Assembly: GCA_016194335.1 (NCBI GenBank)
Contig: JACQBR010000012.1
Location: 5,448 to 69,447, forward strand
DNA from: Candidatus Micrarchaeota archaeon
GTDB taxonomy: Archaea; Micrarchaeota; Micrarchaeia; Norongarragalinales; UBA97
Length of the DNA stretch: 64,000 nucleotides
Reading direction: 5' to 3'
Part shown: positions 7,672-23,178 of the stretch, piece after piece
Layout of the letters: the number at the start of each line of letters is the position of its first letter
How positions within the stretch are numbered: the first letter of the stretch is position 1
The notes under the pieces: model-generated
What the model saw: only the letters and a program-made list of their open reading frames with translations
The model's database searches: none
What the model was told of the DNA's origin: nothing
Made by a program: the position numbers and the translations under genes

Positions 7672-7692
7672 TTCAGTTCACTCTTTGAAAAT

Positions 7693-10600
7693 TCATGTCG
7701 GGGAGATTGGAGTCACCGTAATCTTGCCAAAACCATTCGTAACGGGTGTGGGCGCGGGCTGGAAGACCGAGTTGTAAAGCGCGAGGGCCTCCTGGTCGGG
7801 CTTGGTCGGCTCTTCCTTCTTTGCCGCGGGTTTCGCTGCGGGCTTGTCCTCTGCGCTTGGCTTGAAAGTCGGGCGCTTGGCACTCGCCGCCGCTCCCGCC
7901 GTTGCGGGGGTTGTCTGCACGGGCTTGGAGTTGAACCCGAGCACGAGGGTGTAGCGCCCGTCGGCCTTCTGCACCATGTTCACGCACGCCTTGTTCCCGT
8001 CATCCGCCTTGCAGAAGTTTTCGTAAACCTGCGTCGTAATGCAGCCGCCCTGCGCGTTGCCCTCGCAATAGCGGTGGACGCTGGGCAGGCCGTTGGAAAG
8101 AGTGCCGCCCGGCGGGTTGTGAAGCACGACAATGTCGCTCACTCCCGCATACGCAAGCGCCTCGACGGGCTTGACGTTAGCGGAGACGCCCAACGCCGCG
8201 ACAAACTGCGCAAGCGTCCCCACGCCCTTGAGGACGTTGACCAAGCGCTTGGCCTTGGCTGCTGCAATAACCCCTTCTGAAACGCCCACAACGGTTCCCT
8301 TGAGGGCATTTCTCTCCGCATTGATGAAAAGAACTTTGACATCGTTGTGCCACTTATCCAGCGTATCGATGATTTTCATATCCTTCTTTATGCCTGTGCT
8401 TTTCGCTTCGACTTCAGCAACGAATTCGGGCGTGAATACCTCCTCCAGCGTTTGAGTAGGAAATGCCTCCTTCAAACCCGGACCCCACTGAAGCGGCTTG
8501 CTTGCATCGCCCAGCTTGGAGCGTATGGCATCCAAACTCGCCTTGTCTTTGAAGATGCTCTTGCCCCCCGGAGGGAACTTAAGCTCCCCGAATTCCTTCG
8601 CCGCGGCCCTGCCGTAATTCCTTGCCGAAACCTCCAAAGCGGGCTTGATGGCGGTTTGGAAGCGAGTCATTTGGACGGAGTCAAAAACAATCTTGGAAGC
8701 TACTCCGGCGCCCAAACCGTACTTTAACGTCGGAGGTGCTACCCCTGGCCTTACGCTCATCACTTCCGACAGTGCATCTTTAATTGCGCGAGGGTCGTGA
8801 GGAAACTTCCCCCCGTCAACCTGCGCCTTCCATTCCTGAATAAATCCTTTTATGAACTCGTTCTTGTCGTCAAGCTTTGTTGATGCAAACTGGGCGTCGG
8901 TGAAGAATTCCCGCGATAACTGGCGGTAAAGAATGGCACTCGGCACTGCCGACTGTTCTATCGCCCTCCCCACCTGGAACGTCGCGCGCCTGCCGGCGAC
9001 AAATGCGGGCGCGGCTTGCTCGCCAAAGAATGAGGAAGTGGCTTCGCCAGCTCCAATGAGCGCAACGTTTGGAATGCTAAGCGTCCCCTCCCTGCTCGCC
9101 TCGCTCACGATGTTCCTTCCCACCGATGCGAAGCTATTTGTGACTGCGGCCGCGCCCGTCGCGCCTTTTGCAACGGTAAAACCGCTTTGGGAAAGCCCGC
9201 CGAGGATGATGCTGGAGAAGACATTCTGCACGCAGGAATTTATCACGCGGCACTCACCTCCAGAAGCGCTGCCCGTATGGATTGTTGCGCCTGCTCCAGA
9301 AGGTATTAGGCTTATGCCGCAGGTAATCCCGCCGGACGCCAATGCCTTGCCGGTGTAAGTGGCGAACCAGCCTAACGCCCCCGCCAGCGGAAGCAATCCT
9401 GCTGCAGTAGCCGCGCCTGCGGCCGTGGTAAGCGCGGCTGTCACGGCCAAGCCGCCTCCGAACACCGTACCCAGCTGTGAGATGCCGTGCTGGGTGCAGA
9501 ATCCGGGCCCGTCGTAGTAAGTGCTTTTCACAAACCCGAATTCGTCCCCGCGCGCCTGGACGTCCTGGTTGTACAGGGCGTTAAACGCGCTGATGGCCAC
9601 GCGCTCGTCGTCCTTGCTGTCGTCCCCACCGTAAGGCCCGGTTTGGAACGCGCCGAGGAACGGCAGGATGCTTAGGGAACTGATGCTCTCAAGCCCCTTG
9701 CTGCCGAACCGGCTGGCCACTGCTATGGGACTCCAGCTTACCTGCTCCCTGCCCACTATAACTTCAGGGTCGGTGAGCTGGTCAGTCGCCCGCGGCTCGC
9801 CGGAAAGCAGCGCGAAGTTTGAAATCTTGCCGTCGCACGAGGCGACTTTCCTGATTTTTGAATTGAAGTTGACTGCATTGAGCCACGCAAAGTGGTCGTT
9901 AGCGCCCTGCTGGAAGAAGTTTGACGGCACGTCGGGCAGGTTCACGCGCGTCTCGATGAGGTAAATGCCGCAGGAACTCAAGTCCTCCCCATCCATCCTG
10001 ACGCCGTTGCCTGCAGGCAGCCACTTCCCTCCGCTGAACGCTTCCCTCCCCGCTTTTGCCAAATCGTCTTTAGAAACGGCCGCGGGCCCGGCTTTTTGGA
10101 CTACCAGCGTCTTTACCACGCTGCCGCCCACGCTCTTGGTGAAAGTCTCCGCGGCCTTGAGGTCGGTGGCGGTTGGAGAATGGCTTATGAAAACGCCGTC
10201 CATCGCGTCCCTAAGGGCGGAAATGTGCGACTTGAAAGTCTCGGCCACCTGCTCATTCGAGCAGAAGTATTCCTCGCACCGCGTGAAGTCGGCAGTGGAG
10301 GCCGAGGTGGAGCCTGCCGGAGTGCCCGTGTTGGCATTGACGGGAGTGGAGGATTGGAATTGGAGGACGGAAGTTCGTTTCCCTCCGCCATCCCCCTTAA
10401 GGCTTATTGCCGAAAGTTGGGAAAGCGAGTCGGCGTCCTGAACCAACCCGGCTTTCTTGGGGACGCAGGATTTCGTTGCCTTGTCGTAATCCATTGCAAT
10501 TTTTGGATCAGTGCAGCAAATGTCGCGAGGGTGGAATGAATCCTTAGCGCCGTTGCCTTCGCAGAACATCGCCTTTTCCTTATTGTTAAGTTTGGCCGCG

Positions 10601-13600
10601 TCAGCGCCTTGAGCATCTGATGCGCAGTGGCCTCCCGGCACGGACAGCGCGGCTCCCGATTCGCTTGAGAACTGGCAATTCTCGTTGCCTTCTGCAACCG
10701 CCGCAGCCGGCTTCTGCTCCGCGCCTGAAGCGGGAGTTCCGGGCGTGATGGAAATGGATGGCTTGTTCTCCTGCGCATTTGCATTCGCGCCTGCGGGGGG
10801 CTCGCGCGTTACAATCGATTTTATTGTTGGTTGCGACCGAGTGAGGGCCGGGCAACTGAGAGAATTGACTGCCGTGGGACAGAGCGTCCCCTGCGGCGAG
10901 CCGGTTGCCTTGTAGAATGCGTAAGCCCCGTTCTGCGCGTCTGGCTTAAAGACGTTGAACCGCACGGTCACCACCGTCTTGTCGTCCGTCTTGGCACCAC
11001 CAGCACCATCGTCTTTCAGGACGGTTCCGGTGATGGAAAGTTCGGCGTCGAAAATTTGCTGCTTGCCGTCGGCCATAGTCTTGGGCAACTCCGCGGCGGG
11101 AGAGCAGGCGGCGAGGGCGGATGTTCCTTTCTGGAGTTTTTGCCCGTCAATCTCCGGCCCCGCAAACGACGGGCCGATGCCTGCGTTGAGTTTGGAAATG
11201 TCGGTGGAATCGGGCACAATCCTGCATATGATGCCGCCGGCCTTGCCTTCAGGCCACTTTGCCGAAAGCGAGATTGGCGTGATGAGGTTGTTCACGATTG
11301 CGAAGTATTGCGTCTGGCCGGGTTCGGGCGTCTTGAAGAAAATCCCGCCTCCTTCCATCGTCTGGGTTTCAGTTGATGTATCTATCGAGCTTGCGTGCGT
11401 AACGTGAAAGCCGTTGAGCCGCAGGCGCCGGTTGAGTTCCGCGGCGTTCTCGCACTTGCCGGTGTCCTTCTTCACCTCAATCTTGATTTTCAGCTCGTTG
11501 GACTGCACGGCCGCGCCGGGCGTGGCGCCTGCCTGCTGCTTTCCCGAAAACTTCACCGTCCCTGTAATCGCGTTCTCGCCCGTGTGGTCCTGCGTGACGC
11601 AGCCGGTGACGGGGTCGGTGATTCCCGCATCCAGCGGGATGGTTGCAACGACGTCCACGAATCCTGGTTCGGTGCGCACGCCGGGAATGAACGGATCGCG
11701 CGCGTTCTTATCACTCCCGCCCGCCTTGAACCAAGCGATGTTCTTCACGTCAAACCAGCCTTGCGAACCGGCAGTCCCCGCGAATGCAGTCTGGTCGATA
11801 AGCAGGTTGACTCCCACTGCGCCGAGGTTGGTGAGTTTCGCCTTCATGCTCTGCGGCTTGAGGCCGTCAGTGCCGTCGGTGAAGGCGAATTGCAGCTCGT
11901 CGGGATGCTCGGTTGAATCCGCCTCGGCAAGCAGCTGCGGCGTCCCTTCGGCAGAGCCGGGGTTGACCTTCACAGTCCCCACTGAAGAGGGGTTGGCGCA
12001 AAGCGTGAAGACCACGGGCTTGCCGGTCTTCACGTCAACAGCGGGCTTGGTGTGGGCCTCGTGCGTCTTCTCGTGCTCAATCTCGAAATCGCGGCGGTCG
12101 TCCACGCACGCGTCGTTGCTCGGGCGCTTCTGGTCACAGCCGGCGGCGCCCACGTTCCCGAACTGCATTTTCTCCGTCCCGCCAACGAGGCCGAGGATTT
12201 CCTGCGAGCCGGCAAATTCGGAAACCTGCCTGCACTTTTCCTGATCGGGGAATGTCACCACTCCCGATGCGATGCTCGTGGGGCTTTCACCAACGGAGTC
12301 GAGCGGAAGGATGAACCGCGTGATGGTGGGGAAGAACATCGTGATTTGCCGCGCCGACTCGTCCGTGGGGTTGCAGGCGGCGAGGGTGATTTGTGCTCCG
12401 GAAGAAAATTCAATGAACTTGCGGTCGCCTGCGGCCAGGCTAGGCCGGACGCGGGCGTTGGTGACGGTAACCTGGATGCTTTGGGGAAGGATGGCGCGCC
12501 TGGTGGTTGCCGAAGTAGTTTCGAAAACCACAGGGCTGGCGCACGATTGCATCGTGGCAACTGCCGCGCCGCCCCTTTGTTCAACCGTTGCGCTTCCCAC
12601 GTCAATGTAGCCCCTGAACGGCGCCTTGAGCACGAGCTGGCCGGGCCGCTCGCCCGTGAGGCTCACCAAGGAAGTTTCGGCAAAGGAAAATCTCACTGGA
12701 GTGCCTGCGGGGATGGAGAGTGAAAGCAACGACGACGCTGCGCTGCGGGTGGAAGGCGCGCCGAGGCCGGGGAGCGAAGCCGGGCCAAGGGCGGAGGGAG
12801 AGCCGCCCTGCTGGGAGGGGTTGGAAGAGCCGGACTGAAGCTGGCCGAAAGCGTTTTGCCCGCTGCCGCCCGAAAAGCCTGTGCTTGGAGAGAATTGGGC
12901 AAACCTGCTTGCAGCTTGCGCGCCCGCGGGGCCGATGCCGGGGATGAAGACATTCACGCCGTTTTCAAGCTTGAGGGCGTATTCGGCGCCCACTTTGGCG
13001 ATTTGCGCCTTTGGCGAGTAGAAAATGTTCCACGCGAACGGGAAGATGAGGGAATAGCCGTCGGGCGTTGCGGAGGCCCACTCCTGCTGGATCAGGAAGT
13101 TTGAGCCTTCTTCCACTGAAATCATCTTGTCCGCGCCAAGGCGGGATGAAAACGGCGAATTGGATGGGCCTGTTGCCGAAGACGAGCCCAATCCCGCTCC
13201 GCCAGTTCCCGCAAATCCCGAAAGGCCCATCCCTCCCTGCGGGAATGCAATCCTGCCCCCTCCCCGCAGCTGGAAGATTGTCGCCTGGGTTTGCGGGTCG
13301 CTATACTGCCTCGCGCCAGGGAGGGAAAACTGCGCCTTTGCTGGAAACGACTTGATTTCCTGAAGCCCGTCGGTGCTGAAGTCTATTGGATGCAGTTCAA
13401 TTGTGCTGAAGGCCGGAAGGGAGTAGGTTACCCTGTTGTTCCTCGCGTCAATCACGGGCCGCGCGTTCTTGGGAAGGAGAAGCTCGTCAAAATCGCCTGC
13501 AATCACATAACCCCGGTCTTCCGGCGCAACTGCCTTGCCCCCCGCCACGGTGAGGGTGAGGCCAAGTGGCAGGAGAAGCCTCCAGCCGCTTGCGTATGCT

Positions 13601-16600
13601 GAATTCTCGCGACGCAACTTGGATGCGGAATCCGCCCTTGCCGCAAGCGGGAGAAACATCGCGTAAGAGGGGCTTATCGAAACGCCTTGCGGCACGCTTA
13701 CCGAGCGGGTCCCGCCGCCGAGTGAAGCAGCTGAAGCCGCGGCGGAAGCTGCGGTGATTGTGGAGGTTGCTGATTGGGAGCCTGCGAATGAGCCTGCGAA
13801 TGAATTGGCTGAAGTCTGGGAGCCTGCGAATGAGCCTGCGAATGAATTGGCTGAATTGAGCGTGTTTCCGGCGCCGAAAATGATTCCCAGCCCGTCGCCG
13901 AGTTTCACCACAAGCGTGCCGTCGTTACCCGCCTGGAATACCTTGGCATTGTCGGGAATGGAGAACACCGCGTCGGCAGGGAGGAATACCGGCTCGAGGT
14001 TGCTTCCGATGCTTGCGTCAATCGGCTGCACCTGCACCAAAGCGCCTGCCGCGAGCTTGGATGCGAACCGCTCCTTGCCGGAGGCGTCCGCAGTTTTCTC
14101 AACGGGAATGATTTTCGGAATTATGAGTTCAGTCGCCCCCTCGAGAATCGACTTTGTCGAATCGGCATTGTCAATGGGGGAAGTGGATGAGGTGAGGATG
14201 ATGTTCGCCGGCGCGGTGAACTTGAGCACGCGGAATTTCGTGCCCCTCGAATCGGCCGAGCTGGAAGTGGAGAGAAGCTCCTGCGAGGGGTAGAACACCG
14301 TGCCTGCGGGGAGGGAAATCCCTTCGGCCTTCACGGCCATGTCGGCGTTGAACGTAATCGTGCCGCGGGTGAATTGCACGATGAAAGTCCCGTCCTGCGC
14401 CTTGGGCAGCACGCGGGCAGTTGGAGGAATTTGGAGAAGCGCGTCAATGGGAAGCGAGAAGGCCACGCGGCCGCCTGCAGGCACTTGGCTGAGGATGAGG
14501 GGGATGACGGAAATCCTCCCGCCCGCCTGCACTGAATACACCTGCATCCCCTGGTCACCCTTTTCGCGAAGCGGCGGCGAAACGCCGGCAGGCAGGCGCA
14601 GCTCCGTGTCCGAAAGGATGACGCTTGTCGAGCCGTCGGCATTCGCGTATGCCTTCGCATCGCCGGGGACCTTGATTGTTGAAGGGACGGGAAGGGCGAG
14701 GGAATACGCGGGAAAGCCAGCGGAGCTCACAAGCGACTGCTCGCGCAGTGAAGCGGCGGAGGCCGGGAGTGGCGAGACGATTCCGGGGCTGAACGTGACC
14801 GTGTCGCCCTGCTGGATGAGCACTTCGCTGAGTTGCGGCCTCACGCCCTGCTGGCCGAACTGCACTTTCCTCGCGTCGACAATGAGGTCGCGGTCGAAAA
14901 CCACCCGGCCGCCGTTGCCGAAATCAACCGTGCGCGAGCCGTCGGGAGCAAGGGGAAGCACCCTCGACGCGGCGCCAAGTTGCAGCGTGAGCTCAAAGGG
15001 AAGCGTAATGTGGTCGCCTGCAATCCTGCCGCTGTAAATGGGAAGCACGCGGACGGGCGCAAAGCCGGGGACGTAAAGCTGCTGCACGCCCACGCCACCT
15101 GAGAGTTGCGAAAGCGGCGCCGGGGAACTGCCCGGCGGGAAACGGATTTCCGTAGTTGCGTCAAAAACGCTCAGCGTCCCGTCGGGATTGTTGTAAAACG
15201 CGCTTTGCGAACGGACTACGGCCTTGAACGCTGCGGGGAGGGAAAACTCGTAGCTCGCAGCCTGGCCAAACGAAGACCACGAGTCGAAGGCAAGCGGGCG
15301 GTAGAGCTGGGGGGTGAGGACAATTTGGCTTGAGGAGGGGACGAGGAGAACGTTCGAACGCTGGGAGGCCGACGCTGCCAATGCGGAATAAGGCGATTGG
15401 TAGGGAATGCCGCCGGGGTTGGCGTAGGGCGATGCGAACTGCCCTGCGAAAGGCTGGAATGCGTTGAAGGTGTTGAATCCCGACGGGAAACCCAGCCCGC
15501 CCAACCCCCCGAATCCCCCCAGCCCCGCTGCGCCAACTGCCGTTGGGGTGGTGAGGGAAGCGCCTGAGAATTTTGCGCGCATTCCCCCTGCAAATTCCAC
15601 TGCCAGCCCGCCTGGCGCGTTCTCGTCCACGAGGGCGTCGGGCGGCAGTTCCATCTGGATTTCAAACGGAAGGATAAGCGCAGGGCCGAGCACGTTGAGG
15701 CCGAAGGGCGCCGAAGTGATGCGGCCGCCTGCCGGAACGGTCGCAACGATTCCGCGCGCGTCGCGAGTGGGAACGCCGGCGCCCGTGAGGATAATCTGCG
15801 TCCCGAGGCCTTGGACCGTTGCAATGAGGGAACCTCCACGCCGGACGATTCTCGATTCCTGCGGGAGGATTACGGTTGCGGCAAAAGGCATCACCACCTC
15901 GCGCCCGCCGTTCTGCCTCTCGGCCACGAGGTTCGGCGGGAGAAGGGCGTTGGTGCCCTGCGGCCATTGGATAGTCCTGCTTGAGGACGCACCCGCCTTC
16001 TGCGCAGACGCGCCGGGGAATTGCGCCACGCTGCCGTCTGGGAGAAACACGGTCACCCCGCCGCCCTTTTCCACCACGCGGCCGCTTGGAGGGATTGAAA
16101 GCGTCACGTCAAGCGGCAGGCTCACCGCAACGTTGCCGTCGAAACTTATTTGCCCAAGGGGCTGCACCTGCACTTGAGTGTTGGGAGGGACTTCCGCAAC
16201 GTTGCTGCCCGCGGACGGGACGAACTGCGTGATGCGCGGCAGGGTGATGACGAGGTTGGCATCCTGCAAGACCGCCTGGGAATGGCCCGTCTGGGTGGAG
16301 AGGATTTCCGCGTCAAGCGGCACGCCCAATTGCGAGCGCATTGGGAGGGAGAATGAAAACGCGCCGTTTGGAAGCGGCCTGAAGAAGTCTGGCGAGTCGG
16401 GCACTGAAACTTGCGTGCCTTGCGGCGCGACAACCGTGGCAATGCCGGTTGCCGAAGCGGGCGAGAGCTCCGCGGGAGTGGCGAAGGTGATGACCTCATC
16501 GCTTGAGAGCCACACGCCAATTATCCCTCCGGTGTCTTCCGGCTTGCTCACGCGCAGGGCGGGGGGCACGTCAATTGAAAGCTGGGCTGGAAGGACAAAG

Positions 16601-19600
16601 GCCCTGTTCGCCCTCGCGGCGAGATGAATCTCGTCAATGGGGTTGGGCGGCTTGGCTGTTTGCTCCACAACCTGCCCCACCTGCCCCGCCGGGACTCCCC
16701 CCACTGCAGCGTAGAAGTTGGTGACGGCATTTGCGGGCATGCTCGCGATGGAAATTCCCTTGTCGTCGGTGGTGATGCGGCCGGTGCGCGGGAATGCCAC
16801 CACGATGTCCTTGAGCTCCAGAAGCGTCGTGCCGTCCTTCTGCACGGTGGTCTTGCCCGATGCGGGAAGGACGAACGAGTAGGGAGTGGGAAGGACGAAG
16901 CGGTAGTCCCGCACGGACGCCGAGAGGGAAGACGCGCGGATGGGAATGATGACGCCGGGGGTGAATACCACGGGCGTGTTTTCAGGCGCGCGGACTACGT
17001 TGCCCTGCAATACCGAGCCCGTGCCGAAAAGGCCCCGCGCGCCGGGAAACTCGGCGTACACCTGTCCGTCGGGACGCGTGCGCGAAAGCGCGCCTTGCGG
17101 AAGCGCCACTGCAAGCTCGAGGGGAAGCGTGCGCTCCTCTCCCAGGACAAAGAATTCCTTCGGCTCGATTGAAAGGGCCATTCCCGCCTGCAAGAGAGCG
17201 GTGCCGCCCTTTTCCCTGGGAGTGAGCTTCGCGCTTGAGGGGATGGTGGCCTTGAACGAATCGCCCACCAGCACGGTCGCCTTTTCCGCACGCAGCACCT
17301 GCACGCTCTCGTCAAATGAAATCACAAGCGCGTAGGGAAGGGTGGCTGAAACCGCGCCGTTTGCCCCACCAGCAGCCCCGCCTGCCACGCTGAACTTGCC
17401 GCCGGGAAGCAAAAGCGCGCTGCCCGCCGGAATGCGCACGAAGGAAGAGAATGCATTGGAGGCGGACGATGGGTTTGGTTGTGATTGTGCATTGGAAGTT
17501 CCAGGATTGGACGAACTTGCAGGGGCCAACGCTATTGAACCGATGGAATTCACGTCCTGCAGGGCAAGTTCGGCAGGCGCGGAGAACCCAACGGGCGTGC
17601 CGTCGGGAAGCAGGACCGCGACGCCTTGCGTGGTCTGTTTTGCACGCGCCTCAAAAGGCAGGGGGACGGTGGCGTCGAAAGGCAGCGTGAGCCGCGAGAG
17701 GCTCTCGAGCCTGATTTCGGGAACCGCACTGATGCGCGTACTGGCGGAAGGCGAGAGCGCGTCGGTGAAGAGGAGGCCGGGATACTGGCCCTTGGGCGTG
17801 AGGGCTGCTGATTTGGAAAGGTGCAGGTCGTAGGACGGCAGCGCGGCGACTTTTTCCGACTGGGCCTCGACGATTTTGGTCCCTGCCGGAATGCCGATTG
17901 AATAGGGCAGGGCCGGCCGGAGGACAAACCCGCCGTCTGAAGCATAGGTGATGTAACCCTGCGGGAATGATGCCTTGCTTGATGCGGGGATGAACGCCTG
18001 CCTCGAACCGTCCAACTCCTGACTGCCTACCGAAGCGTCGGGCGAGAGGGAAATCACCTCGCCGCTAAAGAGGGCGATTGTCTTTGCACCCCCGGCCTCC
18101 TCGTAACGCGCGTCGGGAGGGATGGAGAGGATGAGCGCAACCGGAAGGGAGTAAAACGAATTTCTTGAGGTTGCAGCCCGCAAGTCAATTGGGGTGAATG
18201 AGAACTGCGCGTTGGGTTGGATGGCCGCCACCCGCACGGACTCGCCTTGGGAAATTTGCGCGTCGGAGGGAAGCGAAAGGTCAAAACCGGGAAGGAACGC
18301 CACGATGCTTCCCGAGCGCTGGGCAAGCTGGATGTCGCGGTCAAGCTCAAGGGCAACGGGAATGGGAAACTTCAGCGAATAGCCTCCCGACGCGCCTGCG
18401 GACATCACTGAAGGCGGCAGGAGGAGGGGGGCGTTGGCCGGAAGGGAAACTTCAAGCGAACCGTCCGAATTTGCGGTTTGCCTCACCGCCTCGGCGGGAA
18501 AGCCGAAAACCGCGCCGCTTGGAAGCTGGGCCGAGAATGTCGAGTCGGGGTTGGATGAGGCGATGGTGTTGGCGGGAAGCGAAAGCCTCACGGGAATGGG
18601 AATGCGCGCCATTGCGTTGCCCCGCGTGTCGAGGCGGCCAAGCGGGCTTACTATAATGGGCGTGGAGGCGGGAATGGAGACGGTGCGGCCTTCCGACGCG
18701 CCGGGCGCGCCTGAAAACGATGCGCTTTGGGGGAGGGACACCTGCAGGCTTCCCAAAAGCACCACGCTTTTCCCGTTTGCATTAACCACTGCAACGTCGG
18801 CCGGAACCACCAATGACGACGCGACGGGAAGCGTGAGGGTGAGCACTTGCGTCGCGAGGTCCAACACCGCCTGCGGCGCCTCGACGATAATTTCCTTGCC
18901 GAAGGGAACCTCGATTTTCCTTCCCTGTCCCTGCACTACCGACTCGCTGGAGAACGCGATGAGGCTCCCGCTTGAAAGCTGCATTGCCGTGCTGCCGTCG
19001 TCATTCGGCCTTACCTTGGCATCGGCAGGCGCGGTTATGCGCAGCGTGAGTGGAAGCGTCACGCGAACGGGGTTGGGCGGCATGCAGGTGCCGCTCGCGC
19101 CAATCGTGAGCGAAACGGGGAGAGTGCGTTTTGAAGTGAGCCCCTGGAACGACGCCCATAGTGCGAGCGTGCCGCCCTGGCGGGACTCGTCGAAAATGCA
19201 CGAGCCGGGATTGCGCGATGCGGGGTCGGCGGATGCCGTGAGGGTGAAAGAGCCGGACTGGCCCGGAGGAATTTCAAGCGAGAGCGGCTCGATGCGCAAT
19301 CCCCTCAGGCTGCTCAACTCCTCGTTGACCAGAAGCGGGTGGGGCGCGTCGTTGCTTACGGTAACCAATTGCGAGCCGTCGGCCTTGAGGGGCGGGGAGA
19401 GCTTTATCTCAACGGATTGCACATCCACTCGCCACGAGGAATCAATGGGCTGTTGGGAAATCTTCGCGCTTGCCACAAACGGGATTTCAACCGCCTGGCG
19501 CACGCCGCCCGCGCTTGCCGAAACGCGCACCCTCCCGCGCACGGTTTCCTCCAGCTGGCCGCCCTTTTGCGAGAGGCCCAATACGAAATCGGAAATGCGC

Positions 19601-22600
19601 GCCTGCAGCAGGGCGTTGAACGCCCCCCTCGCGGGCACGCGGACCGACTCCTGCGGGAGTGCGGAAATGTCGAGAATCTTGGGGATGGAATCTTTCGAGA
19701 CGCTGATGGAAAAGCCCACTTCGTTTTCAAGCAGGTTCTCAACCGTGACGGGCGCGCTTGCAACCTCGCCCTTTGCCGCCACGCTCAGCTCCACGCCCGC
19801 CTCCTTGGCAGCGATGAAGTTTTTCGCAGTGACGGGAATGCGCGTGCGTGAAATTGAAAAACCCGATGCCTCCGCCGAAAGCGCCACGCCCCCCACTGAC
19901 GATGGCGAAATGGCATCGGCAACGTAAGTGCCCCGCTCGGCAGGGTCTTCAACGGCCTCGACCACCCGGCCGAGCGCGTCGTCCTGCACGCCGCCGAGCA
20001 CCACGCGCGCCTTGCCCACGGGAATGCCGAGGGAATCCCTCACCTTCACCTTCACTTGCGAAGGCACGAGGGCGGTGAACGAAAGCGGTGCGTACTGCAC
20101 GGAAAGCGACTGGACGCCCTGGGAATTCACGCGGACGAAAAACGTCTTTTGGTACGCCACGGTGCCGTCCTTCTTCAGGGTGAGGGCGAGGGCGGCGTTG
20201 TTCGACACCCTCTGGCTGCGCAGGGAGAACGAAACGCCGTTGCCCGAAATCGGGATGGAGGCAGTTGAGGAATCGTCATCGGCCTTCACCGGCGGCGACT
20301 GCACCCCCCCGGACTGCGCGTTTTCAACATTGATGGAAATGCCCGCGGACTGCAGCGCCGCTTCGGAAGTGCCGTTGGCGCCCAGCACGAGGACGCGGAG
20401 GTAAAACTGCTTTGCCACCTCGCTCTCGAACCCCGGCGCGGGCATTGCCGTGCCGTCCTGCTCGAACGAGGCGGCCACGCACAACCCGTTTTGGCAGATG
20501 CCCTCAAAACCGATGTTGGCCGATTCGGAAAGCGCGTTTGCCAGAAGCTCGCTTTTCTTCACTCCCGCGTCGGCATCGTCGGGATTGCGCAGCACCGTGG
20601 GCGCTTCGGTGCCTGCGCCCGCGACGTAGGCAGTGCGGTAATTGAGCGTTGCCTTGCCGGCAGTTACCTGCGCGGTTTGCACGATTACGGAAATTTCCCT
20701 CGTTCCGGAAAACTTGCCGAACACCGCCTCGACCCACGCGAGCTTGCCAGAGGCATCCTGGTTGGCGTTCTGCGTCGCGGCCTGGGCAGCTGCCTGCACC
20801 GAGGTTTGCACTACCGGCGGGAATGGGGATAGTTGGGATGCTGCCGATTGGCTTGTTGGGGATGGAGATGACGATGGGTTTTGCTGGCCCGTTGAAGATG
20901 GAGATTGCGCCGATGGGTTTGTTCCCGCTGCCCCGGCCGCCCCAAGGGAATCGGCTGCCGTTAAGGCCGCAAGCGCTGGAGGCACGAAATTCCTTGCAGC
21001 TTCGAAGTCCGCCCCGTAAAGCACGCGGCCCGCGCCAGGCGCGTCAAACCCCACAATCACGGCATTCTTGGAAGCGAGGGAATCGCCTGCACTTCCGATT
21101 GAGACGAACGCGTGCGCCTCGTCAAAATCGATTGGCGCGGCGCGGAGGATGAACCTCGCGCGGTATTGCGAAGCCGGCGCGAGGGTGCCAACCCTGTTTC
21201 CGGCAAGGTCGTAAAATCCCGCGAATTCCATTCTCGTCCCAGACGCGAGGGCCGAGGGAATGAGTTCCGCCCGCACTTTCGCCTCGGAATTTGCGGTGAT
21301 TGCAAAGGAGCTGGTGAAGAAATCGTCATACCCCCCGGCTCGGACCACCGCCGTTGCGCCCTGGCCTTCCGGCGCGTCGATGAGGCAAGTGCCTGCCGAG
21401 TCGGTGACGCAGGTGAGCGAAGGGGCTTTGGAGGAAGCTGAAGACGGCGATGGACTGGAATACGCACCTGTTGGTGAGGTTGGGGATGAAGAGCCTGCGG
21501 AAGCTGTTGATGAAGCTTGGGCCGATGCGGTTGCCGAGGTTCCTGAAGTTGATGGAGCTGATTGGTATGGCAATCCCGCAATTGAAAGCGCCACCCTCGC
21601 TCCCGAAACGGGCTTGAGGCCGTAGTGGTCCAGCACGAGCAGCCGCGCCTTTCCCGTCCCGCGTGCGAGGGAAATTTCAACCGATGCGTTGCCCGATTGC
21701 ATTGCAAACGCGGCCTCCCCCAAACGGCCTTGCACCGACGCGACTGCAACCAGCGCGGTTGCCGGAACGTCGTCAAAATACTGCACCCCGTCCGGGCCGG
21801 TGATTCTCTCGCCCGTTCCCAATGGGGTGCGGTCCTTGGAGTAGAGGGCGATGCTCGCGCCGCCCGCGTCGCTGCCGTCGTAATTCCCCGCGTGGGCCTT
21901 GAGCCTGCCGCTGTTCTGCGCCGTGGCCTTTGCCAACGCGATTTTTTTCTGCGGGCCTGAAACCGACGGGATGAACAGCGGGAGAAATCCCGGGGCGTAC
22001 GCGCTTAGGGCGTAGGAAGACTTGGAATCGGCCTTGAAGTCGTAAGTGCCGTCAAACGGCTTTTCCTCGTCGGCAATGGAATACTGGCCCGAAGGCGTTT
22101 TGGAATAAAGCCTCAACAGCGGGTTTTCAACGAGCTTGGCACCGTCCGCGGCGGAGTCGTAAACCTCAACGTGAAGCGTGGAGGGGCCTTCCGCCTTGCG
22201 CACCTGCACTTCCACGGTAGTGTCGGCGGCAACGGTGATTGAATCGCTTGCGTTGGCGGCATACCCGTCCCTCGACGCCTTGAGCACAACCACCTGCCCA
22301 AGGTCGGTCTCGGAAGTTTGCGTCATTCCGTCGTCGGCAGTTGCGAGGTTGGCAACCATCGCCCTCGTCGCCGCGTCCCGCACTTCAACTTGCGCGGCCG
22401 GAACGGGCTTTCTCTTCCCGTCGGCAATTTCGAAAACAAACGCCTTTACCGTCCCGCGCTTTGCAGTTGGAATTGCCTGGAGCGCAATAGCGCCGAGGAA
22501 CGAGTCGCCGGAGCCCGAAACCTGGTTGGTAAGCGTCTTGTCGGTGAATCCCGGCGCGCTAATCTTGACGTGGAAAGTGGCGTTGGCGTCGAGGGTGAAA

Positions 22601-23178
22601 GCGGGCTTGAATCCCTTTGCAGGTTCGAAAAGGGGATTCCAAAGCTCGTCGTAAAGGACGGTGGTTACCTTGTCGGGGTCTGTGGGGCCGGAAACCTCCA
22701 TCGAAACGGTGACTTTCTTCAAAGCCACGGGCGCGGTTGATAGGGAAACTTCAGCGACCTTTCCGGCAGCGATGTCCTGGAAGGCGTCAGCGTTCTTGTA
22801 ATCGGGATAGAACGCGCTCACGTGCACCTGCTCGGTTGAAGGCAGGCCGGAGAAAGTGACGACCCCCTGCGCGTCAGTCTGGCCGGTTTTTTGCGCAAAC
22901 GACGAGCTGCCCGCAGTGCTCGTGACCTTCACCGTCGCGCCCTGGAGCGGAGTTCCGTCCGTGGCAGTGAGCGTCACCTTGAGGTCGCCCACCTTCGGCG
23001 CAAGAAGCGCCGGCGCTGCCATGAAATAGGCGCCTGCGAGAATGAGGAGAAGCAGCAGGGCGAAAAACGGCAGGCTGGGCACGCCCTTCCCCTCCAGCCA
23101 GTCGGCTGCGTCGCGAAGCGGCACTCCCCGCTCGGAGGCCCAATCCAGAAAATCTTCCCAGTTCTCCTGCAAGCCCAC
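7693..23178 (-). CDS. giant (5,161 aa) membrane-anchored repeat-rich, Cys-rich surface protein
   Basis: Uninterrupted frame with GTG start, an N-terminal TM helix, Big/CarboxypepD_reg-like segments, dozens of degenerate 70-80-aa units, a Cys-rich C-terminal third and hydrophobic G/A-rich segments. Confidence 0.85.
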   Translation of the reverse strand: MGLQENWEDFLDWASERGVPLRDAADWLEGKGVPSLPFFALLLLLILAGAYFMAAPALLAPKVGDLKVTLTATDGTPLQGATVKVTSTAGSSSFAQKTGQTDAQGVVTFSGLPSTEQVHVSAFYPDYKNADAFQDIAAGKVAEVSLSTAPVALKKVTVSMEVSGPTDPDKVTTVLYDELWNPLFEPAKGFKPAFTLDANATFHVKISAPGFTDKTLTNQVSGSGDSFLGAIALQAIPTAKRGTVKAFVFEIADGKRKPVPAAQVEVRDAATRAMVANLATADDGMTQTSETDLGQVVVLKASRDGYAANASDSITVAADTTVEVQVRKAEGPSTLHVEVYDSAADGAKLVENPLLRLYSKTPSGQYSIADEEKPFDGTYDFKADSKSSYALSAYAPGFLPLFIPSVSGPQKKIALAKATAQNSGRLKAHAGNYDGSDAGGASIALYSKDRTPLGTGERITGPDGVQYFDDVPATALVAVASVQGRLGEAAFAMQSGNASVEISLARGTGKARLLVLDHYGLKPVSGARVALSIAGLPYQSAPSTSGTSATASAQASSTASAGSSSPTSPTGAYSSPSPSSASSKAPSLTCVTDSAGTCLIDAPEGQGATAVVRAGGYDDFFTSSFAITANSEAKVRAELIPSALASGTRMEFAGFYDLAGNRVGTLAPASQYRARFILRAAPIDFDEAHAFVSIGSAGDSLASKNAVIVGFDAPGAGRVLYGADFEAARNFVPPALAALTAADSLGAAGAAGTNPSAQSPSSTGQQNPSSSPSPTSQSAASQLSPFPPVVQTSVQAAAQAATQNANQDASGKLAWVEAVFGKFSGTREISVIVQTAQVTAGKATLNYRTAYVAGAGTEAPTVLRNPDDADAGVKKSELLANALSESANIGFEGICQNGLCVAASFEQDGTAMPAPGFESEVAKQFYLRVLVLGANGTSEAALQSAGISINVENAQSGGVQSPPVKADDDSSTASIPISGNGVSFSLRSQRVSNNAALALTLKKDGTVAYQKTFFVRVNSQGVQSLSVQYAPLSFTALVPSQVKVKVRDSLGIPVGKARVVLGGVQDDALGRVVEAVEDPAERGTYVADAISPSSVGGVALSAEASGFSISRTRIPVTAKNFIAAKEAGVELSVAAKGEVASAPVTVENLLENEVGFSISVSKDSIPKILDISALPQESVRVPARGAFNALLQARISDFVLGLSQKGGQLEETVRGRVRVSASAGGVRQAVEIPFVASAKISQQPIDSSWRVDVQSVEIKLSPPLKADGSQLVTVSNDAPHPLLVNEELSSLRGLRIEPLSLEIPPGQSGSFTLTASADPASRNPGSCIFDESRQGGTLALWASFQGLTSKRTLPVSLTIGASGTCMPPNPVRVTLPLTLRITAPADAKVRPNDDGSTAMQLSSGSLIAFSSESVVQGQGRKIEVPFGKEIIVEAPQAVLDLATQVLTLTLPVASSLVVPADVAVVNANGKSVVLLGSLQVSLPQSASFSGAPGASEGRTVSIPASTPIIVSPLGRLDTRGNAMARIPIPVRLSLPANTIASSNPDSTFSAQLPSGAVFGFPAEAVRQTANSDGSLEVSLPANAPLLLPPSVMSAGASGGYSLKFPIPVALELDRDIQLAQRSGSIVAFLPGFDLSLPSDAQISQGESVRVAAIQPNAQFSFTPIDLRAATSRNSFYSLPVALILSIPPDARYEEAGGAKTIALFSGEVISLSPDASVGSQELDGSRQAFIPASSKASFPQGYITYASDGGFVLRPALPYSIGIPAGTKIVEAQSEKVAALPSYDLHLSKSAALTPKGQYPGLLFTDALSPSASTRISAVPEIRLESLSRLTLPFDATVPLPFEARAKQTTQGVAVLLPDGTPVGFSAPAELALQDVNSIGSIALAPASSSNPGTSNAQSQPNPSSASNAFSSFVRIPAGSALLLPGGKFSVAGGAAGGANGAVSATLPYALVISFDESVQVLRAEKATVLVGDSFKATIPSSAKLTPREKGGTALLQAGMALSIEPKEFFVLGEERTLPLELAVALPQGALSRTRPDGQVYAEFPGARGLFGTGSVLQGNVVRAPENTPVVFTPGVIIPIRASSLSASVRDYRFVLPTPYSFVLPASGKTTVQKDGTTLLELKDIVVAFPRTGRITTDDKGISIASMPANAVTNFYAAVGGVPAGQVGQVVEQTAKPPNPIDEIHLAARANRAFVLPAQLSIDVPPALRVSKPEDTGGIIGVWLSSDEVITFATPAELSPASATGIATVVAPQGTQVSVPDSPDFFRPLPNGAFSFSLPMRSQLGVPLDAEILSTQTGHSQAVLQDANLVITLPRITQFVPSAGSNVAEVPPNTQVQVQPLGQISFDGNVAVSLPLDVTLSIPPSGRVVEKGGGVTVFLPDGSVAQFPGASAQKAGASSSRTIQWPQGTNALLPPNLVAERQNGGREVVMPFAATVILPQESRIVRRGGSLIATVQGLGTQIILTGAGVPTRDARGIVATVPAGGRITSAPFGLNVLGPALILPFEIQMELPPDALVDENAPGGLAVEFAGGMRAKFSGASLTTPTAVGAAGLGGFGGLGGLGFPSGFNTFNAFQPFAGQFASPYANPGGIPYQSPYSALAASASQRSNVLLVPSSSQIVLTPQLYRPLAFDSWSSFGQAASYEFSLPAAFKAVVRSQSAFYNNPDGTLSVFDATTEIRFPPGSSPAPLSQLSGGVGVQQLYVPGFAPVRVLPIYSGRIAGDHITLPFELTLQLGAASRVLPLAPDGSRTVDFGNGGRVVFDRDLIVDARKVQFGQQGVRPQLSEVLIQQGDTVTFSPGIVSPLPASAASLREQSLVSSAGFPAYSLALPVPSTIKVPGDAKAYANADGSTSVILSDTELRLPAGVSPPLREKGDQGMQVYSVQAGGRISVIPLILSQVPAGGRVAFSLPIDALLQIPPTARVLPKAQDGTFIVQFTRGTITFNADMAVKAEGISLPAGTVFYPSQELLSTSSSADSRGTKFRVLKFTAPANIILTSSTSPIDNADSTKSILEGATELIIPKIIPVEKTADASGKERFASKLAAGALVQVQPIDASIGSNLEPVFLPADAVFSIPDNAKVFQAGNDGTLVVKLGDGLGIIFGAGNTLNSANSFAGSFAGSQTSANSFAGSFAGSQSATSTITAASAAASAASLGGGTRSVSVPQGVSISPSYAMFLPLAARADSASKLRRENSAYASGWRLLLPLGLTLTVAGGKAVAPEDRGYVIAGDFDELLLPKNARPVIDARNNRVTYSLPAFSTIELHPIDFSTDGLQEIKSFPAKAQFSLPGARQYSDPQTQATIFQLRGGGRIAFPQGGMGLSGFAGTGGAGLGSSSATGPSNSPFSSRLGADKMISVEEGSNFLIQQEWASATPDGYSLIFPFAWNIFYSPKAQIAKVGAEYALKLENGVNVFIPGIGPAGAQAASRFAQFSPSTGFSGGSGQNAFGQLQSGSSNPSQQGGSPSALGPASLPGLGAPSTRSAASSLLSLSIPAGTPVRFSFAETSLVSLTGERPGQLVLKAPFRGYIDVGSATVEQRGGAAVATMQSCASPVVFETTSATTRRAILPQSIQVTVTNARVRPSLAAGDRKFIEFSSGAQITLAACNPTDESARQITMFFPTITRFILPLDSVGESPTSIASGVVTFPDQEKCRQVSEFAGSQEILGLVGGTEKMQFGNVGAAGCDQKRPSNDACVDDRRDFEIEHEKTHEAHTKPAVDVKTGKPVVFTLCANPSSVGTVKVNPGSAEGTPQLLAEADSTEHPDELQFAFTDGTDGLKPQSMKAKLTNLGAVGVNLLIDQTAFAGTAGSQGWFDVKNIAWFKAGGSDKNARDPFIPGVRTEPGFVDVVATIPLDAGITDPVTGCVTQDHTGENAITGTVKFSGKQQAGATPGAAVQSNELKIKIEVKKDTGKCENAAELNRRLRLNGFHVTHASSIDTSTETQTMEGGGIFFKTPEPGQTQYFAIVNNLITPISLSAKWPEGKAGGIICRIVPDSTDISKLNAGIGPSFAGPEIDGQKLQKGTSALAACSPAAELPKTMADGKQQIFDAELSITGTVLKDDGAGGAKTDDKTVVTVRFNVFKPDAQNGAYAFYKATGSPQGTLCPTAVNSLSCPALTRSQPTIKSIVTREPPAGANANAQENKPSISITPGTPASGAEQKPAAAVAEGNENCQFSSESGAALSVPGGHCASDAQGADAAKLNNKEKAMFCEGNGAKDSFHPRDICCTDPKIAMDYDKATKSCVPKKAGLVQDADSLSQLSAISLKGDGGGKRTSVLQFQSSTPVNANTGTPAGSTSASTADFTRCEEYFCSNEQVAETFKSHISALRDAMDGVFISHSPTATDLKAAETFTKSVGGSVVKTLVVQKAGPAAVSKDDLAKAGREAFSGGKWLPAGNGVRMDGEDLSSCGIYLIETRVNLPDVPSNFFQQGANDHFAWLNAVNFNSKIRKVASCDGKISNFALLSGEPRATDQLTDPEVIVGREQVSWSPIAVASRFGSKGLESISSLSILPFLGAFQTGPYGGDDSKDDERVAISAFNALYNQDVQARGDEFGFVKSTYYDGPGFCTQHGISQLGTVFGGGLAVTAALTTAAGAATAAGLLPLAGALGWFATYTGKALASGGITCGISLIPSGAGATIHTGSASGGECRVINSCVQNVFSSIILGGLSQSGFTVAKGATGAAAVTNSFASVGRNIVSEASREGTLSIPNVALIGAGEATSSFFGEQAAPAFVAGRRATFQVGRAIEQSAVPSAILYRQLSREFFTDAQFASTKLDDKNEFIKGFIQEWKAQVDGGKFPHDPRAIKDALSEVMSVRPGVAPPTLKYGLGAGVASKIVFDSVQMTRFQTAIKPALEVSARNYGRAAAKEFGELKFPPGGKSIFKDKASLDAIRSKLGDASKPLQWGPGLKEAFPTQTLEEVFTPEFVAEVEAKSTGIKKDMKIIDTLDKWHNDVKVLFINAERNALKGTVVGVSEGVIAAAKAKRLVNVLKGVGTLAQFVAALGVSANVKPVEALAYAGVSDIVVLHNPPGGTLSNGLPSVHRYCEGNAQGGCITTQVYENFCKADDGNKACVNMVQKADGRYTLVLGFNSKPVQTTPATAGAAASAKRPTFKPSAEDKPAAKPAAKKEEPTKPDQEALALYNSVFQPAPTPVTNGFGKITVTPISPT
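13776..13855 (-). repeat. in-frame tandem duplication (38-nt exact copies, 42-nt period) inside the giant gene
   Basis: gggagcctgcgaatgagcctgcgaatgaattggctgaa occurs at 13776-13813 and 13818-13855. It encodes SANSFAGSFAGSQ(T/S) twice. Confidence 0.9.

Follow-up and report, generated by a model that had tools for sequence, protein, structure and literature searches.

A giant membrane-anchored repeat protein of Candidatus Micrarchaeota, a candidate cell-surface tether of a DPANN episymbiont

Within the window (the whole 64-kb stretch of Candidatus Micrarchaeota DNA analyzed here), the ORF 7693-23178 on the minus strand is a real gene, whose giant product carries a single predicted membrane anchor, an array of all-beta repeats and a conserved C-terminal module. 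It belongs to the WEDFLDW-anchored giants, a widespread but unstudied family. We give roughly even chances to the proposal that this protein is a type-II-anchored cell-surface tether or adhesin of a Candidatus Micrarchaeota (DPANN) episymbiont, bearing a host-binding head; both the adhesin identity and host binding are what we infer from sequence.

An intact gene and its relatives

7693..23178, minus strand: giant gene, 5,161 codons plus stop; product ~532 kDa, pI ~5.8
13775..13855, no strand assigned: perfect 42-bp tandem duplication, 1.9 copies, encoding SANSFAGSFAGSQT (TRF)

ORF listing and translation confirmed the single uninterrupted 5,161-aa minus-strand frame reported in the initial annotation, which starts at GTG 23178, ends with the stop codon 7693-7695, contains no internal stops and takes up about one quarter of the window. 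GTG 23178 is the earliest possible start, given an in-frame stop 12 codons upstream. The runner-up ORF of the window has 1,179 aa, and the calculated chance of an open frame of 5,161 codons, at a stop frequency of ~3%, is ~e^-150. The window gave no match to Rfam families and no tRNA. The full-length protein is found in three assemblies (5161, 5147, and 5147 aa), the two other copies being 99% identical to the giant protein and differing mainly by one 14-aa unit. According to TRF, the 42-bp duplication is the sole DNA-level tandem repeat long enough for collapse; its copy number varies among assemblies and equals the 14-aa indel relative to P0001 and P0004. Moreover, two Logan contigs match window positions 1-10324 and 246-7967 at 99.9-100% identity and cover the 3′ end of the giant gene. 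The three assemblies, the two contigs and the single collapsible repeat largely answer the earlier worry about repeat collapse or hidden frameshifts. That the ORF is a pseudogene in decay or an artifact of assembly (a chimera or collapsed repeat) is next to impossible, as nothing but its extreme length and the one polymorphic 42-bp repeat speaks for it, while against it stand these intact copies, the identical contigs, protein repeats that at 22-35% identity are too diverged for collapse, and an intact colinear ortholog in a distant MAG (L004).

Relatives were recovered at five genome loci and 28 metagenome loci, encoding proteins of 1,520 to >4,689 aa. Four of the five genome relatives lie in Candidatus Micrarchaeota MAGs and the fifth in an archaeal MAG; together with a near-identical Candidatus Micrarchaeota protein and the archaeal neighbors in the window (fibrillarin, Nop5, PolD DP1/DP2, PurP), they bear out the original guess of a small-genome episymbiotic archaeon. 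In tblastn, the giant protein matched L004 (4e-161), L006 (3e-49), and L007 (2e-41). The L004 ortholog, at least 4,689 aa long, is colinear with it at 32-42% identity, and the N-terminal ~1,400 aa are also colinear with P0002 (BLASTP, aa 3-1483, E 4.6e-100). Short relatives have the same ends as the long forms with 2 repeats between them, vs. 23 in the long forms. The giants of low-GC archaeal contigs (2,800-3,070 aa) share their N-terminal ~1,250 aa with the Micrarchaeota clade, and the C-terminal modules of the Micrarchaeota (alignment A3) and low-GC (A9) clades show no similarity (hhalign probability 0.06%, E 0.76). Clade-specific C termini on shared N termini is the pattern that an adhesin with lineage-specific tips would produce. 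The window protein has the traits of the Micrarchaeota clade, namely the WEDFLDW motif with a single transmembrane (TM) helix, the C-terminal Cys module with its knob, and a downstream partner of ~210 aa. Pfam, NCBIfam, and PDB searches of the giant returned nothing beyond its first beta domain and no ligand-binding or lectin domain anywhere; no characterised adhesin family in Pfam or NCBIfam matched its tiles end to end, and a literature search found no description of a WEDFLDW-anchored family.

Anchor, repeat array, and C-terminal third

23074..23178, minus strand: conserved N-terminal motif, aa 1-35, xWEDFLDWxxExGxPxxxxxDxxExxGxPxLP; probably cytoplasmic
23005..23073, minus strand: single strong TM helix, a signal anchor, aa 36-58; Kyte-Doolittle 2.38, Hessa dG -1.4 kcal/mol
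22747..22983, minus strand: CarboxypepD_reg/prealbumin-like beta-sandwich, aa 66-144; PF13620 E 6.4e-12
21403..21594, minus strand: S/T/P/A-rich low-complexity linker, aa 529-592, ending at the Cys590/Cys598 pair
20758..20985, minus strand: second linker, S/P/Q/A-rich by composition, aa 732-807
19069..20751, minus strand: family-specific "mid" region, aa 810-1370, conserved Cys pairs 895/900 and 1327/1365
13159..19089, minus strand: ~75-aa all-beta repeats, 22 detected, aa 1364-3340 (self-HMM and shuffle control)
12319..12522, minus strand: outlying 23rd repeat unit, aa 3553-3620, carrying Cys3602 (self-HMM)
10282..12561, minus strand: Cys-bearing region between the array and the C-terminal module, aa 3540-4299 (Cys map)
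7921..10281, minus strand: conserved C-terminal module, aa 4300-5086, with 7 invariant Cys, a helical stretch and a Cys-bearing beta knob
9229..9510, minus strand: uncharged Gly/Ala-rich segment, aa 4557-4650, bracketed by invariant Cys4561 and Cys4643/4649 (C...N.CV)
7921..8181, minus strand: C-terminal knob, aa 5000-5086, Cys5038/5046/5056/5065; VKPVE...PS[IV]H..C

The WEDFLDW motif is the most strongly conserved stretch of the whole family: W7, F10, L11, D12, W13, G18, P20, D26, E29, G32, P34, L36, and P37 are invariant in 6 of 6 sequences (A5). It also starts the 28 metagenome loci, occurs once in the window, and is probably cytoplasmic. The short N-terminal stretch and one hydrophobic helix noted at the outset were recovered by both hydrophobicity scales, aa 36-58 being the sole segment with Hessa dG < 0 in the giant and in every relative; a Kyte-Doolittle value of at least 1.6 is otherwise reached by one borderline repeat segment (aa 1447-1465, 1.70). 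Charges flanking the helix are net -1 before and +1 after in the giant, leaving the positive-inside rule ambiguous, and favor N-in in the relatives. We infer a type-II topology, with the bulk of the protein extracellular.

Past the helix, the initial annotation had described beta-sandwich segments of the carboxypeptidase-regulatory type and S/T/P/Q-rich linkers, and both are present. PF13620 matches aa 66-144 above its curated cutoff (46.1 bits vs. a gathering cutoff of 32.3), spanning <2% of the protein; SpaA, Big_1, and bMG3 overlap this domain more weakly, and a self-trained HMM found no second PF13620-like copy in the giant at E<0.01. The domain opens a beta-rich region extending to ~aa 528. 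The mid region is 26-41% identical in five homologs (A4), its HMM matches 16 metagenome proteins, and the region has no Pfam match and gave 0 hits in a PDB profile search with A4.

The central array of degenerate 70-80-aa units likewise held up, resolving into 23 units with a self-trained HMM that gave 0-1 matches in twenty shuffles of the region. The units follow the motif LPhxhxhxhPxxAxV..DG..V.L..G..I.FP..A at a spacing of mostly ~75 aa (range 63-157) between aa 1369 and 3327, four low-complexity inserts break up the array, and the outlying unit aligns with P0002 aa 1511-1607. No family had at first been assignable to the repeat; homolog searches overturned this, placing repeat and C-terminal module in a recoverable family. 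An AF2 model of aa 2187-2419, computed from non-overlapping three-repeat tiles (A7), is all-beta (pLDDT 84.6) with 24 short strands, 8 per unit, and would fit an elongated all-beta form of the extracellular fiber first suggested. In Foldseek searches against the PDB, the best matches of this model were CPAP/TCP10 G-box chains (4bxr, 4lzf), which are weak (E 1.2e-3, probability 0.75, 15% identity, rmsd ~17 A, nearly all 233 residues aligned) and have a TM score of 0.14-0.19, elongated flexible shapes being expected to depress TM; the viral library gave no match at E<0.04. When the repeats are compared with those of L004, 21 of the 23 pair best with the unit of the same rank in the array, and nearly every such positional pair outscores the best paralog. 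Rod length and unit order have thus been preserved across a deep split (fibrillarin 58% identical), which is what one would expect if the rod served as a spacer with a set reach.

N-glycosylation sequons are strongly depleted in the giant (4 observed vs. 25.5+-4.6 expected), a near-absence that is unusual for an archaeal surface protein, and are enriched in the window's two Laminin_G_3 proteins.

The "cysteine-rich" label of the initial annotation overstates the composition (0.7% Cys overall, ~1.9% in the C-terminal third), but the C-terminal clustering that it described is real, with 30 of the 36 Cys in aa 3546-5065. The region aa 3540-4299 has no family match in Pfam or NCBIfam and is colinear with L004. 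In the C-terminal module, 7 Cys are invariant across five Micrarchaeota homologs (A3). Exhaustive phmmer with the module recovered a single relative cluster (P0002, E 3.5e-5), and its HMM matches L010 alone among metagenome proteins (E 1.3e-32). Neither the C-terminal 1,661 aa nor the alignments A3 and A4 had a significant match in sequence and profile searches of the PDB (best 0.033, antibody/CHMP3 noise), and Pfam at E<=5 gave nothing consistent across all A3 members. The AF2 model of the module is unusable (pLDDT 29.7, from an MSA of the giant and P0002 only), so that the "head" is defined by sequence alone.

The Gly/Ala-rich stretch proposed here stands, with a charge-free run at aa 4557-4610 whose dG is +2.6 to +4.9, while its hydrophobicity is only marginal: at dG +2.6 to +5 kcal/mol such segments are no classical TM helices, and these C-terminal hydrophobic segments, below the TM threshold, could simply be buried core. 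Invariant A3 columns surround the segment (C262, C344, N348, C350, V351), and similar Cys-bracketed segments occur in L010 and in low-GC relatives. The knob is recovered by BLAST in P0002 (E 8e-9) and L007 (E 2e-6), and the protein ends in ...GFGKITVTPISPT, with no hydrophobic C terminus.

Known classes were tried for the giant and rejected. An archaeal S-layer glycoprotein with a C-terminal PGF-CTERM or TM anchor does not fit its C terminus or its sequon count; there is no HemolysinCabind or RTX match for an RTX/type-I-secreted adhesin, Big_1 and Invasin_D3 being under their cutoffs; a nanohaloarchaeal SPEARE protein does not fit, no ATPase family appearing in any tile (E<=1), in NCBIfam or in the flanking genes; and the locus of a type IV pilus-associated surface protein is present in low-GC relatives, not in the window.

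Neighboring genes and the proposed tether

7048..7671, minus strand: downstream partner gene, 207 aa, N-terminal TM; begins 21 nt past the giant's stop
23610..24761, plus strand: membrane-anchored DsbA-like thioredoxin (CFQC), 383 aa, divergent to the giant gene; PF13462 E 2e-11

The giant gene is flanked by genes for the DsbA-like protein, the 207-aa partner, and a J-domain protein. The partner lies immediately 3′ of the giant gene in the window, L003, L006, and L007 (BLASTP E 6e-7), a count that leaves out L004, L005, and L009, whose loci end within the giant gene; its C171 and C207, the latter being the final residue, are invariant (A2). The DsbA-like gene holds the same divergent position in L004, L005, and L009, all of the long-form clade. 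CarboxypepD_reg/Big-type domains, S/T/P linkers, Cys pairs, and a syntenic DsbA-like protein are extracellular-type features of the predicted product.

In the model that we propose, the 35-residue motif would stay in the cytoplasm and the one TM helix would anchor the protein in the symbiont's own membrane, the ~5,100 residues past it being exported. Proximal beta-sandwich domains and flexible S/T/P linkers would then lead into a rod made up of 23 all-beta units, each of ~75 residues and differing in sequence, giving a fixed reach of tens of nm (an estimated 30-95 nm, depending on solenoid vs. meander stacking). At the distal end of the rod, a disulfide-stabilized C-terminal head would engage the host cell envelope; within the head, the uncharged loop rich in Gly and Ala between the cysteines might enter the host membrane, a speculative step. 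Disulfides of the giant are probably made by the DsbA-like oxidoreductase encoded next to it, and the ~210-aa membrane protein would be a co-transcribed, dedicated partner.

The main alternative, which we hold to be possible though clearly less probable, is that the giant is a structural envelope protein, an S-layer-associated spacer or coat that shapes the symbiont's surface with no direct host recognition. It would account for a membrane anchor with a repetitive beta-rich ectodomain, for the length conserved vs. L004 and for searches that found no binding domain, and large Cys-conserved "S-layer-like" proteins are common in archaeal surface loci (PMC4858521). The difference in repeat number among clades (2 vs. 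23) and heads that are specific to a clade suit an interaction module better than a lattice. Most known archaeal S-layer proteins have a C-terminal anchor or form a lattice, and carry abundant N-glycans; the anchor here is N-terminal, and sequons are depleted, unlike in the Laminin_G_3 proteins of the window.

In low-GC relatives, genes for a T2SSE ATPase and pilin-like proteins surround the giant gene, making up a type-IV-pilus-like locus. The ATPase is found in 15 low-GC loci with enough upstream sequence, at 75-96% mutual identity over its full length, and these loci also carry a conserved membrane protein of ~200-234 aa and class-III signal peptides (QGTIEYL, KGFNMFSA). For a tether, this is a predicted surface-appendage and attachment context. 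It could also mean that the giant is part of a type-IV-filament (pilus-like) machine, its N-terminal motif, the family's most conserved part, docking to a T2SSE/FlaI-type ATPase platform; the ectodomain would then serve as an anchor or a tip-like adhesin associated with the pilus, and the small downstream protein would supply a pilin-like subunit. The partners in L006 and L007 would suit this, as they start K-G-F-F followed by a hydrophobic run. However, no T2SSE ATPase, TadC, or clear pilin was found in the 64-kb window or beside the Micrarchaeota homologs, the window partner has KKG then KSST, a poor class-III site, and the pilus association may be clade-specific synteny. We consider such a machine unlikely, somewhat more so than a structural coat.

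An ambitious extension, to which we attach little probability, is that the WEDFLDW family is the contact apparatus of DPANN episymbionts. Taken as a whole, and with the same small probability, it would have the N-terminal motif, if cytoplasmic, couple to an ATPase platform of the type-IV-filament type; the rod, fixed at 23 units, act as a molecular ruler across both cell envelopes, with N-glycan avoidance keeping it slim enough for S-layer pores; and the head be conditionally membrane-active through a Gly/Ala segment that resembles a fusion loop, is stapled by disulfides and leads into a helical region, inserting in the host membrane and nucleating a cytoplasmic bridge for uptake of host material.

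Contact-dependent toxin delivery (CdiA-, Rhs- or polymorphic-toxin-like), with the downstream gene providing immunity, is very improbable. A filament with a C-terminal module and a small gene directly downstream would suit it, as would the resemblance of the Gly/Ala-rich segment to the glycine zippers that typify certain pore-forming toxins. Yet the C-terminal module is conserved, not swapped, in five Micrarchaeota homologs, the downstream protein is membrane-anchored and exported with conserved Cys, unlike a cytoplasmic immunity protein, and no pretoxin, FHA, Rhs, or toxin Pfam matches were found.

Significance and comparison with known systems

The molecular basis of DPANN host attachment and tapping is largely obscure, and the systems in culture implicate pili and giant surface proteins. 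To our knowledge, only the nanohaloarchaeal ones among DPANN giant surface proteins have been dissected. The WEDFLDW-anchored giants form a second family of giant anchored proteins, unrelated to the nanohaloarchaeal ones as far as the published descriptions set the two apart. This family reaches Micrarchaeota of groundwater and subsurface metagenomes and, via its N-terminal half, many low-GC archaeal contigs, in pilus-like loci. It offers testable parts: a putative 35-residue docking motif, a 23- or 2-unit rod, a dedicated partner, a DsbA-like oxidoreductase, and a head without known fold. As >90% of the giant has no Pfam or PDB counterpart, it is a source of new folds. Were the contact-apparatus proposal true, the family would be the long-sought DPANN host-contact machinery.

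In Nanohaloarchaeota, giant membrane-anchored ectoproteins have been proposed to bind hosts, among them SVXNc_0300 (9,409 aa) and the SPEARE of Ca. Nanohaloarchaeum antarcticus; a VirB4/TraG-like ATPase domain is part of SPEARE-type proteins, whose genes lie next to one for a second, VirB4-like ATPase (PMC10266531). Like these, the giant is a DPANN episymbiont protein of thousands of residues with a proposed role in host contact, an N-terminal export/anchor signal, long beta-rich Ig-like runs, and a distinct distal module. Unlike them, it has no ATPase or enzymatic domain and no ATPase in its flanking genes, and its WEDFLDW motif and 75-aa repeat are unmatched in curated Pfam/NCBIfam, no sequence homology having emerged; the separation from SPEARE is by description. 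Large secreted proteins with several conserved Cys are also encoded in archaeal type IV pilus loci, next to genes for the pilins and the pilus ATPase (Makarova, Koonin & Albers 2016, PMC4858521). Low-GC relatives share exactly the gene context of these adhesin or S-layer-like proteins; the window gene lies outside such a locus, and those proteins are far smaller, some of them C-terminally anchored.

With the CPAP/TCP10 G-box (4bxr, 4lzf), a single-layer beta-sheet rod, the repeat model would share an elongated all-beta structure of many short antiparallel strands; origin and sequence of the giant are unrelated. The staphylococcal SasG/Aap E-G5 rod is a further single-layer beta-sheet rod, and SasG was absent among the Foldseek matches of the repeat model. 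Giant bacterial adhesins of the RTX/LapA/SiiE/MpIBP type are built from BIg/cadherin-like repeats, contain RTX motifs that bind Ca2+, and cross an outer membrane by type I secretion, unlike the giant, which is archaeal, has an N-terminal TM anchor and lacks their repeats and RTX motifs in Pfam searches. In common with them, it would have a membrane-proximal anchor, an extender rod of tandem beta domains, and a distal binding region, with its reach set by repeat number.

Integrity of the giant reading frame

As the initial annotation claimed, a single giant open frame runs on the minus strand from GTG 23178 to the stop codon at 7693-7695, and its 5,161 codons contain no internal stop. An in-frame stop lies 12 codons before GTG 23178, and no earlier start codon is available between the two. 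The product (~532 kDa, pI ~5.8) is abundant in Ala, Ser and Gly, and the second-longest ORF of the window encodes 1,179 aa. tRNA and Rfam scans across the window returned no elements. We searched 1.84 billion cluster representatives exhaustively with phmmer, using the last 1,200 aa as query, and recovered a near-identical protein of 5,147 aa (P0001) at 99% identity, which NCBI assigns to Candidatus Micrarchaeota. Three assemblies each contribute one full-length member to the 90% cluster of the giant protein:

NCBI MBI5177189.1, [quoted passage not shown]
the 5,161-aa protein of the window itself, from an NCBI contig of 113.7 kb
a member from a Logan assembly

Apart from 31 substitutions, P0001 and the window protein differ in one 14-aa unit, which maps to a 42 bp x 1.9 repeat at 13775-13855; no other perfect tandem repeat occurs in the DNA of the gene. 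This duplication consists of SANSFAGSFAGSQT twice, and the single copy found in the two other assemblies indicates a small in-frame VNTR within one of the rod's low-complexity inserts. Moreover, two Logan contigs (SRR12113409, SRR12113410) match window positions 1-10324 and 246-7967 at 99.9-100%, and the protein repeats are mutually only 22-35% identical, too diverged for collapse in assembly. The full-length copies in three assemblies, the Logan matches and the diverged repeats rule out an assembly artefact; the giant gene is real. Of the eight differences that separate the window from the Logan contig L001, six are packed into 23 nt (9396-9418) inside the Gly/Ala-rich hydrophobic segment, comprising A4592L and four synonymous changes; the cluster represents either a local micro-hotspot or a patch of recombination between strains.

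Domain layout and repeat array of the giant protein

The initial annotation read the gene accurately: the proposed single hydrophobic N-terminal helix, carboxypeptidase-regulatory-type beta segment and low-complexity linkers were all recovered, in the following layout.

Domain layout of the giant protein
aa 1-35: acidic, Trp-rich motif
aa 36-58: sole strong TM helix (Kyte-Doolittle 2.38, Hessa dG -1.4)
aa 66-144: CarboxypepD_reg domain (E 6.4e-12, above cutoff), at the head of the beta-rich region
aa 529-592 and 732-807: S/T/P linkers
aa 810-1370: family-specific region with conserved Cys pairs
aa 1364-3340: repeat array
aa 3540-4299: cysteine-bearing region
aa 4300-5086: conserved C-terminal module
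aa 5087-5161: Lys/Pro/Ala tail

Beyond CarboxypepD_reg, Pfam (E<=1), NCBIfam, PDB sequence and profile searches gave no match. The N-terminal motif, which is probably cytoplasmic, is the best-conserved part of the family, with W7, F10, L11, D12, W13, G18, P20, D26, E29, G32 and P34 invariant in an alignment of six sequences.

A profile trained on the giant protein itself converged on 23 repeat units, mostly ~75 aa apart (range 63-157), with the motif LPhxhxhxhPxxAxV..DG..V.L..G..I.FP..A, while shuffled sequences gave 0-1 matches, in line with the long array of degenerate 70-80-aa units noted initially. We modeled three units (aa 2187-2419) with AlphaFold2, using six other tiles of the giant protein as the alignment, and obtained a structure (pLDDT 84.6, pTM 0.62) of 24 short strands, eight per unit, in which helix is almost absent. 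Of the 50 matches listed when this model was searched against PDB with Foldseek, none was to an Ig, Fn3 or parallel beta-helix protein; the top matches, which were weak, were to the CPAP single-layer beta-sheet G-box (E 1.2e-3, near full-length, low TM), and the viral library gave no match. We read the repeats as short antiparallel strands that together form an extended rod, which we estimate would be 30-95 nm long for 23 units, depending on whether the geometry is that of a solenoid (~1.3 nm per unit) or a meander (~3.8 nm per unit).

The ORF of the DeMMO2_14 relative (L004, contig JAGVFW010000008.1), which runs for at least 4,689 aa up to the end of the stretch analysed, is colinear with the giant protein at 32-42% identity and also has 23 repeats, compared with two in the short forms. 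Best L004 matches lie at the same ordinal position for 21 of the 23 window units, and almost every positional pair outscores the best paralog. Given that the fibrillarins of the two loci are only 58% identical, this positional orthology indicates that the array is old, has not been homogenised and has retained its length since the split.

The C-terminal module contains seven invariant Cys across five aligned Micrarchaeota sequences. Between invariant Cys4561 and the motif C...N.CV (Cys4643/4649) lies a 54-residue, charge-free Gly/Ala/Thr-rich run (aa 4557-4610), so that the Gly/Ala-rich character ascribed to the C-terminal segments stands; the run is only marginally hydrophobic (dG +2.6 to +4.9) and so does not qualify as a constitutive TM segment. 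The metagenome relative L010 and the low-GC proteins have comparable hydrophobic stretches, similarly placed and bracketed by Cys, as an analogy only, homology not being demonstrable. AlphaFold2 of aa 4300-5086 gave no assignable fold (pLDDT 29.7). On a speculative reading, drawn from composition and cysteine placement only, the module would be a head that inserts into a membrane.

Relatives and neighboring genes

Both aa 3-1483 of the giant protein (E 4.6e-100) and its C-terminal module align with P0002, a 2,809-aa protein from a Micrarchaeota MAG. In a scan that covered one genome per species, we found five loci: besides L004, these are L005, where the gene is cut by the contig end, L006 (2,556 aa), L007 (2,581 aa) and L008, which, like the P0002 locus L003, is a 10,959-bp contig, the two matching at the same position. 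Four of the five lie in MAGs titled Candidatus Micrarchaeota, and L004 is titled "archaeon" only. Genes neighboring the giant gene in the window are archaeal and informational (fibrillarin, Nop5, PolD DP2 and DP1, PurP, class II aaRS). A metagenome scan added 28 loci. Two are high in GC, namely the long-form L009, with 15 units or more, and L010 (3,463 aa); ~24 lie on low-GC contigs (30-42%) and encode proteins of 2,800-3,070 aa. Both low-GC contigs checked (L013, L020) carry archaeal neighbor genes. The low-GC proteins have the N-terminal motif, TM helix, beta domains and mid region in common with the giant protein; the C-terminal module is not shared, by either a profile search or a profile-profile comparison (hhalign E 0.76).

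Genes of the window
4761-6983, plus strand: 740-aa protein, convergent on the partner gene
7048-7671, minus strand: partner gene, 207 aa
31451-34126, minus strand: Laminin_G_3 protein, ~900 aa
34336-35802: ATPase_2/DUF234 gene
35934-38798, minus strand: paralogous Laminin_G_3 protein, ~900 aa
47045-50584: PolD DP2
50581-51747: unannotated 388-aa ORF
52205-52999: inositol monophosphatase
53006-56116, minus strand: Eco57I/MmeI-type fused restriction-modification enzyme, 1,036 aa
56184-57857: PolD DP1

The partner gene begins 21 nt past the giant gene's stop and comes after the giant gene at L003, L006 and L007 too. Its product carries a TM segment at the N-terminus and ends in one of its two invariant Cys. 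In the window, L004, L005 and L009, the giant gene has a divergently oriented neighbor encoding a membrane-anchored DsbA-like thioredoxin (CFQC), as would suit a cysteine-bearing protein that is exported and folds oxidatively. At the short-form loci the gene upstream of the giant gene instead encodes a fusion of a PIF1-type helicase with a WYL domain (L006 8186-9763 and L007 418-1983, both minus strand), so the oxidoreductase synteny is limited to the long-form clade.

Elsewhere in the window, the 740-aa protein, without a Pfam match, combines a coiled segment rich in Arg and Glu with a C-terminal HPD tripeptide (…VVYHPDR…) that recalls the J-domain motif; judged from its sequence it would be cytoplasmic, and it is probably unrelated to the giant gene. 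The Laminin_G_3 pair, with near-identical C-terminal ends (…GVLTITA…), flanks the ATPase_2/DUF234 gene; LamG expansions are typical of DPANN (PMC5498576). PolD DP2 and DP1 are separated by the phosphatase, the 388-aa ORF and the restriction-modification enzyme; the enzyme lies in a stretch with a GC of 0.50-0.52, lower than the 0.55-0.61 around it, and is possibly a horizontally acquired defence insert.

A proposed surface tether and its alternatives

The giant protein contains four N-x-S/T sequons, none after ~aa 1000, compared with 25.5+-4.6 in shuffles (z -4.7), and its L004 ortholog is likewise depleted (3 vs 25 expected). In contrast, the two Laminin_G_3 proteins are strongly enriched (49 and 46 vs ~21, z +6 to +7), and cytoplasmic controls have the expected counts. 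The organism thus seems to glycosylate its surface proteins and to leave the giant protein bare. Our results best fit a surface tether of fixed length with a type-II anchor and, at its distal end, a head specific to the clade, the function that fits best being a host-attachment device of an episymbiont.

A pilus-coupled role is a live alternative, because the relatives' genes are linked to type-IV-filament loci. In the low-GC clade the giant gene sits inside a conserved locus (L013, L014, L016, L020, L023, L025, L026, L028, L032, L036 and others) with a T2SSE-family ATPase of ~770 aa, a membrane protein of ~200-234 aa, pilin-like genes with archaeal class-III signal peptides (QGTIEYL) and a ~480-aa downstream protein beginning KGFNMFSA, an arrangement that resembles a type-IV-filament system with a giant protein among its components. 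The ATPase, the ~200-234-aa membrane protein and the class-III-signal genes have no counterpart in the 64-kb window. S-layer, RTX-adhesin and polymorphic-toxin assignments each miss at least one defining feature.

For the tether reading, a precedent comes from Nanohaloarchaeota, in which giant proteins anchored in the membrane have been described and proposed to contact hosts; those carry VirB4-like ATPase domains (PMC10266531), unlike the giant protein here. Giant DPANN surface proteins are already known as a phenomenon, of which ours is a variant; what is new is that an uncharacterised family can be recovered, that the units of its rod keep their positions, and that its partners and its probably cytoplasmic N-terminal motif are conserved.
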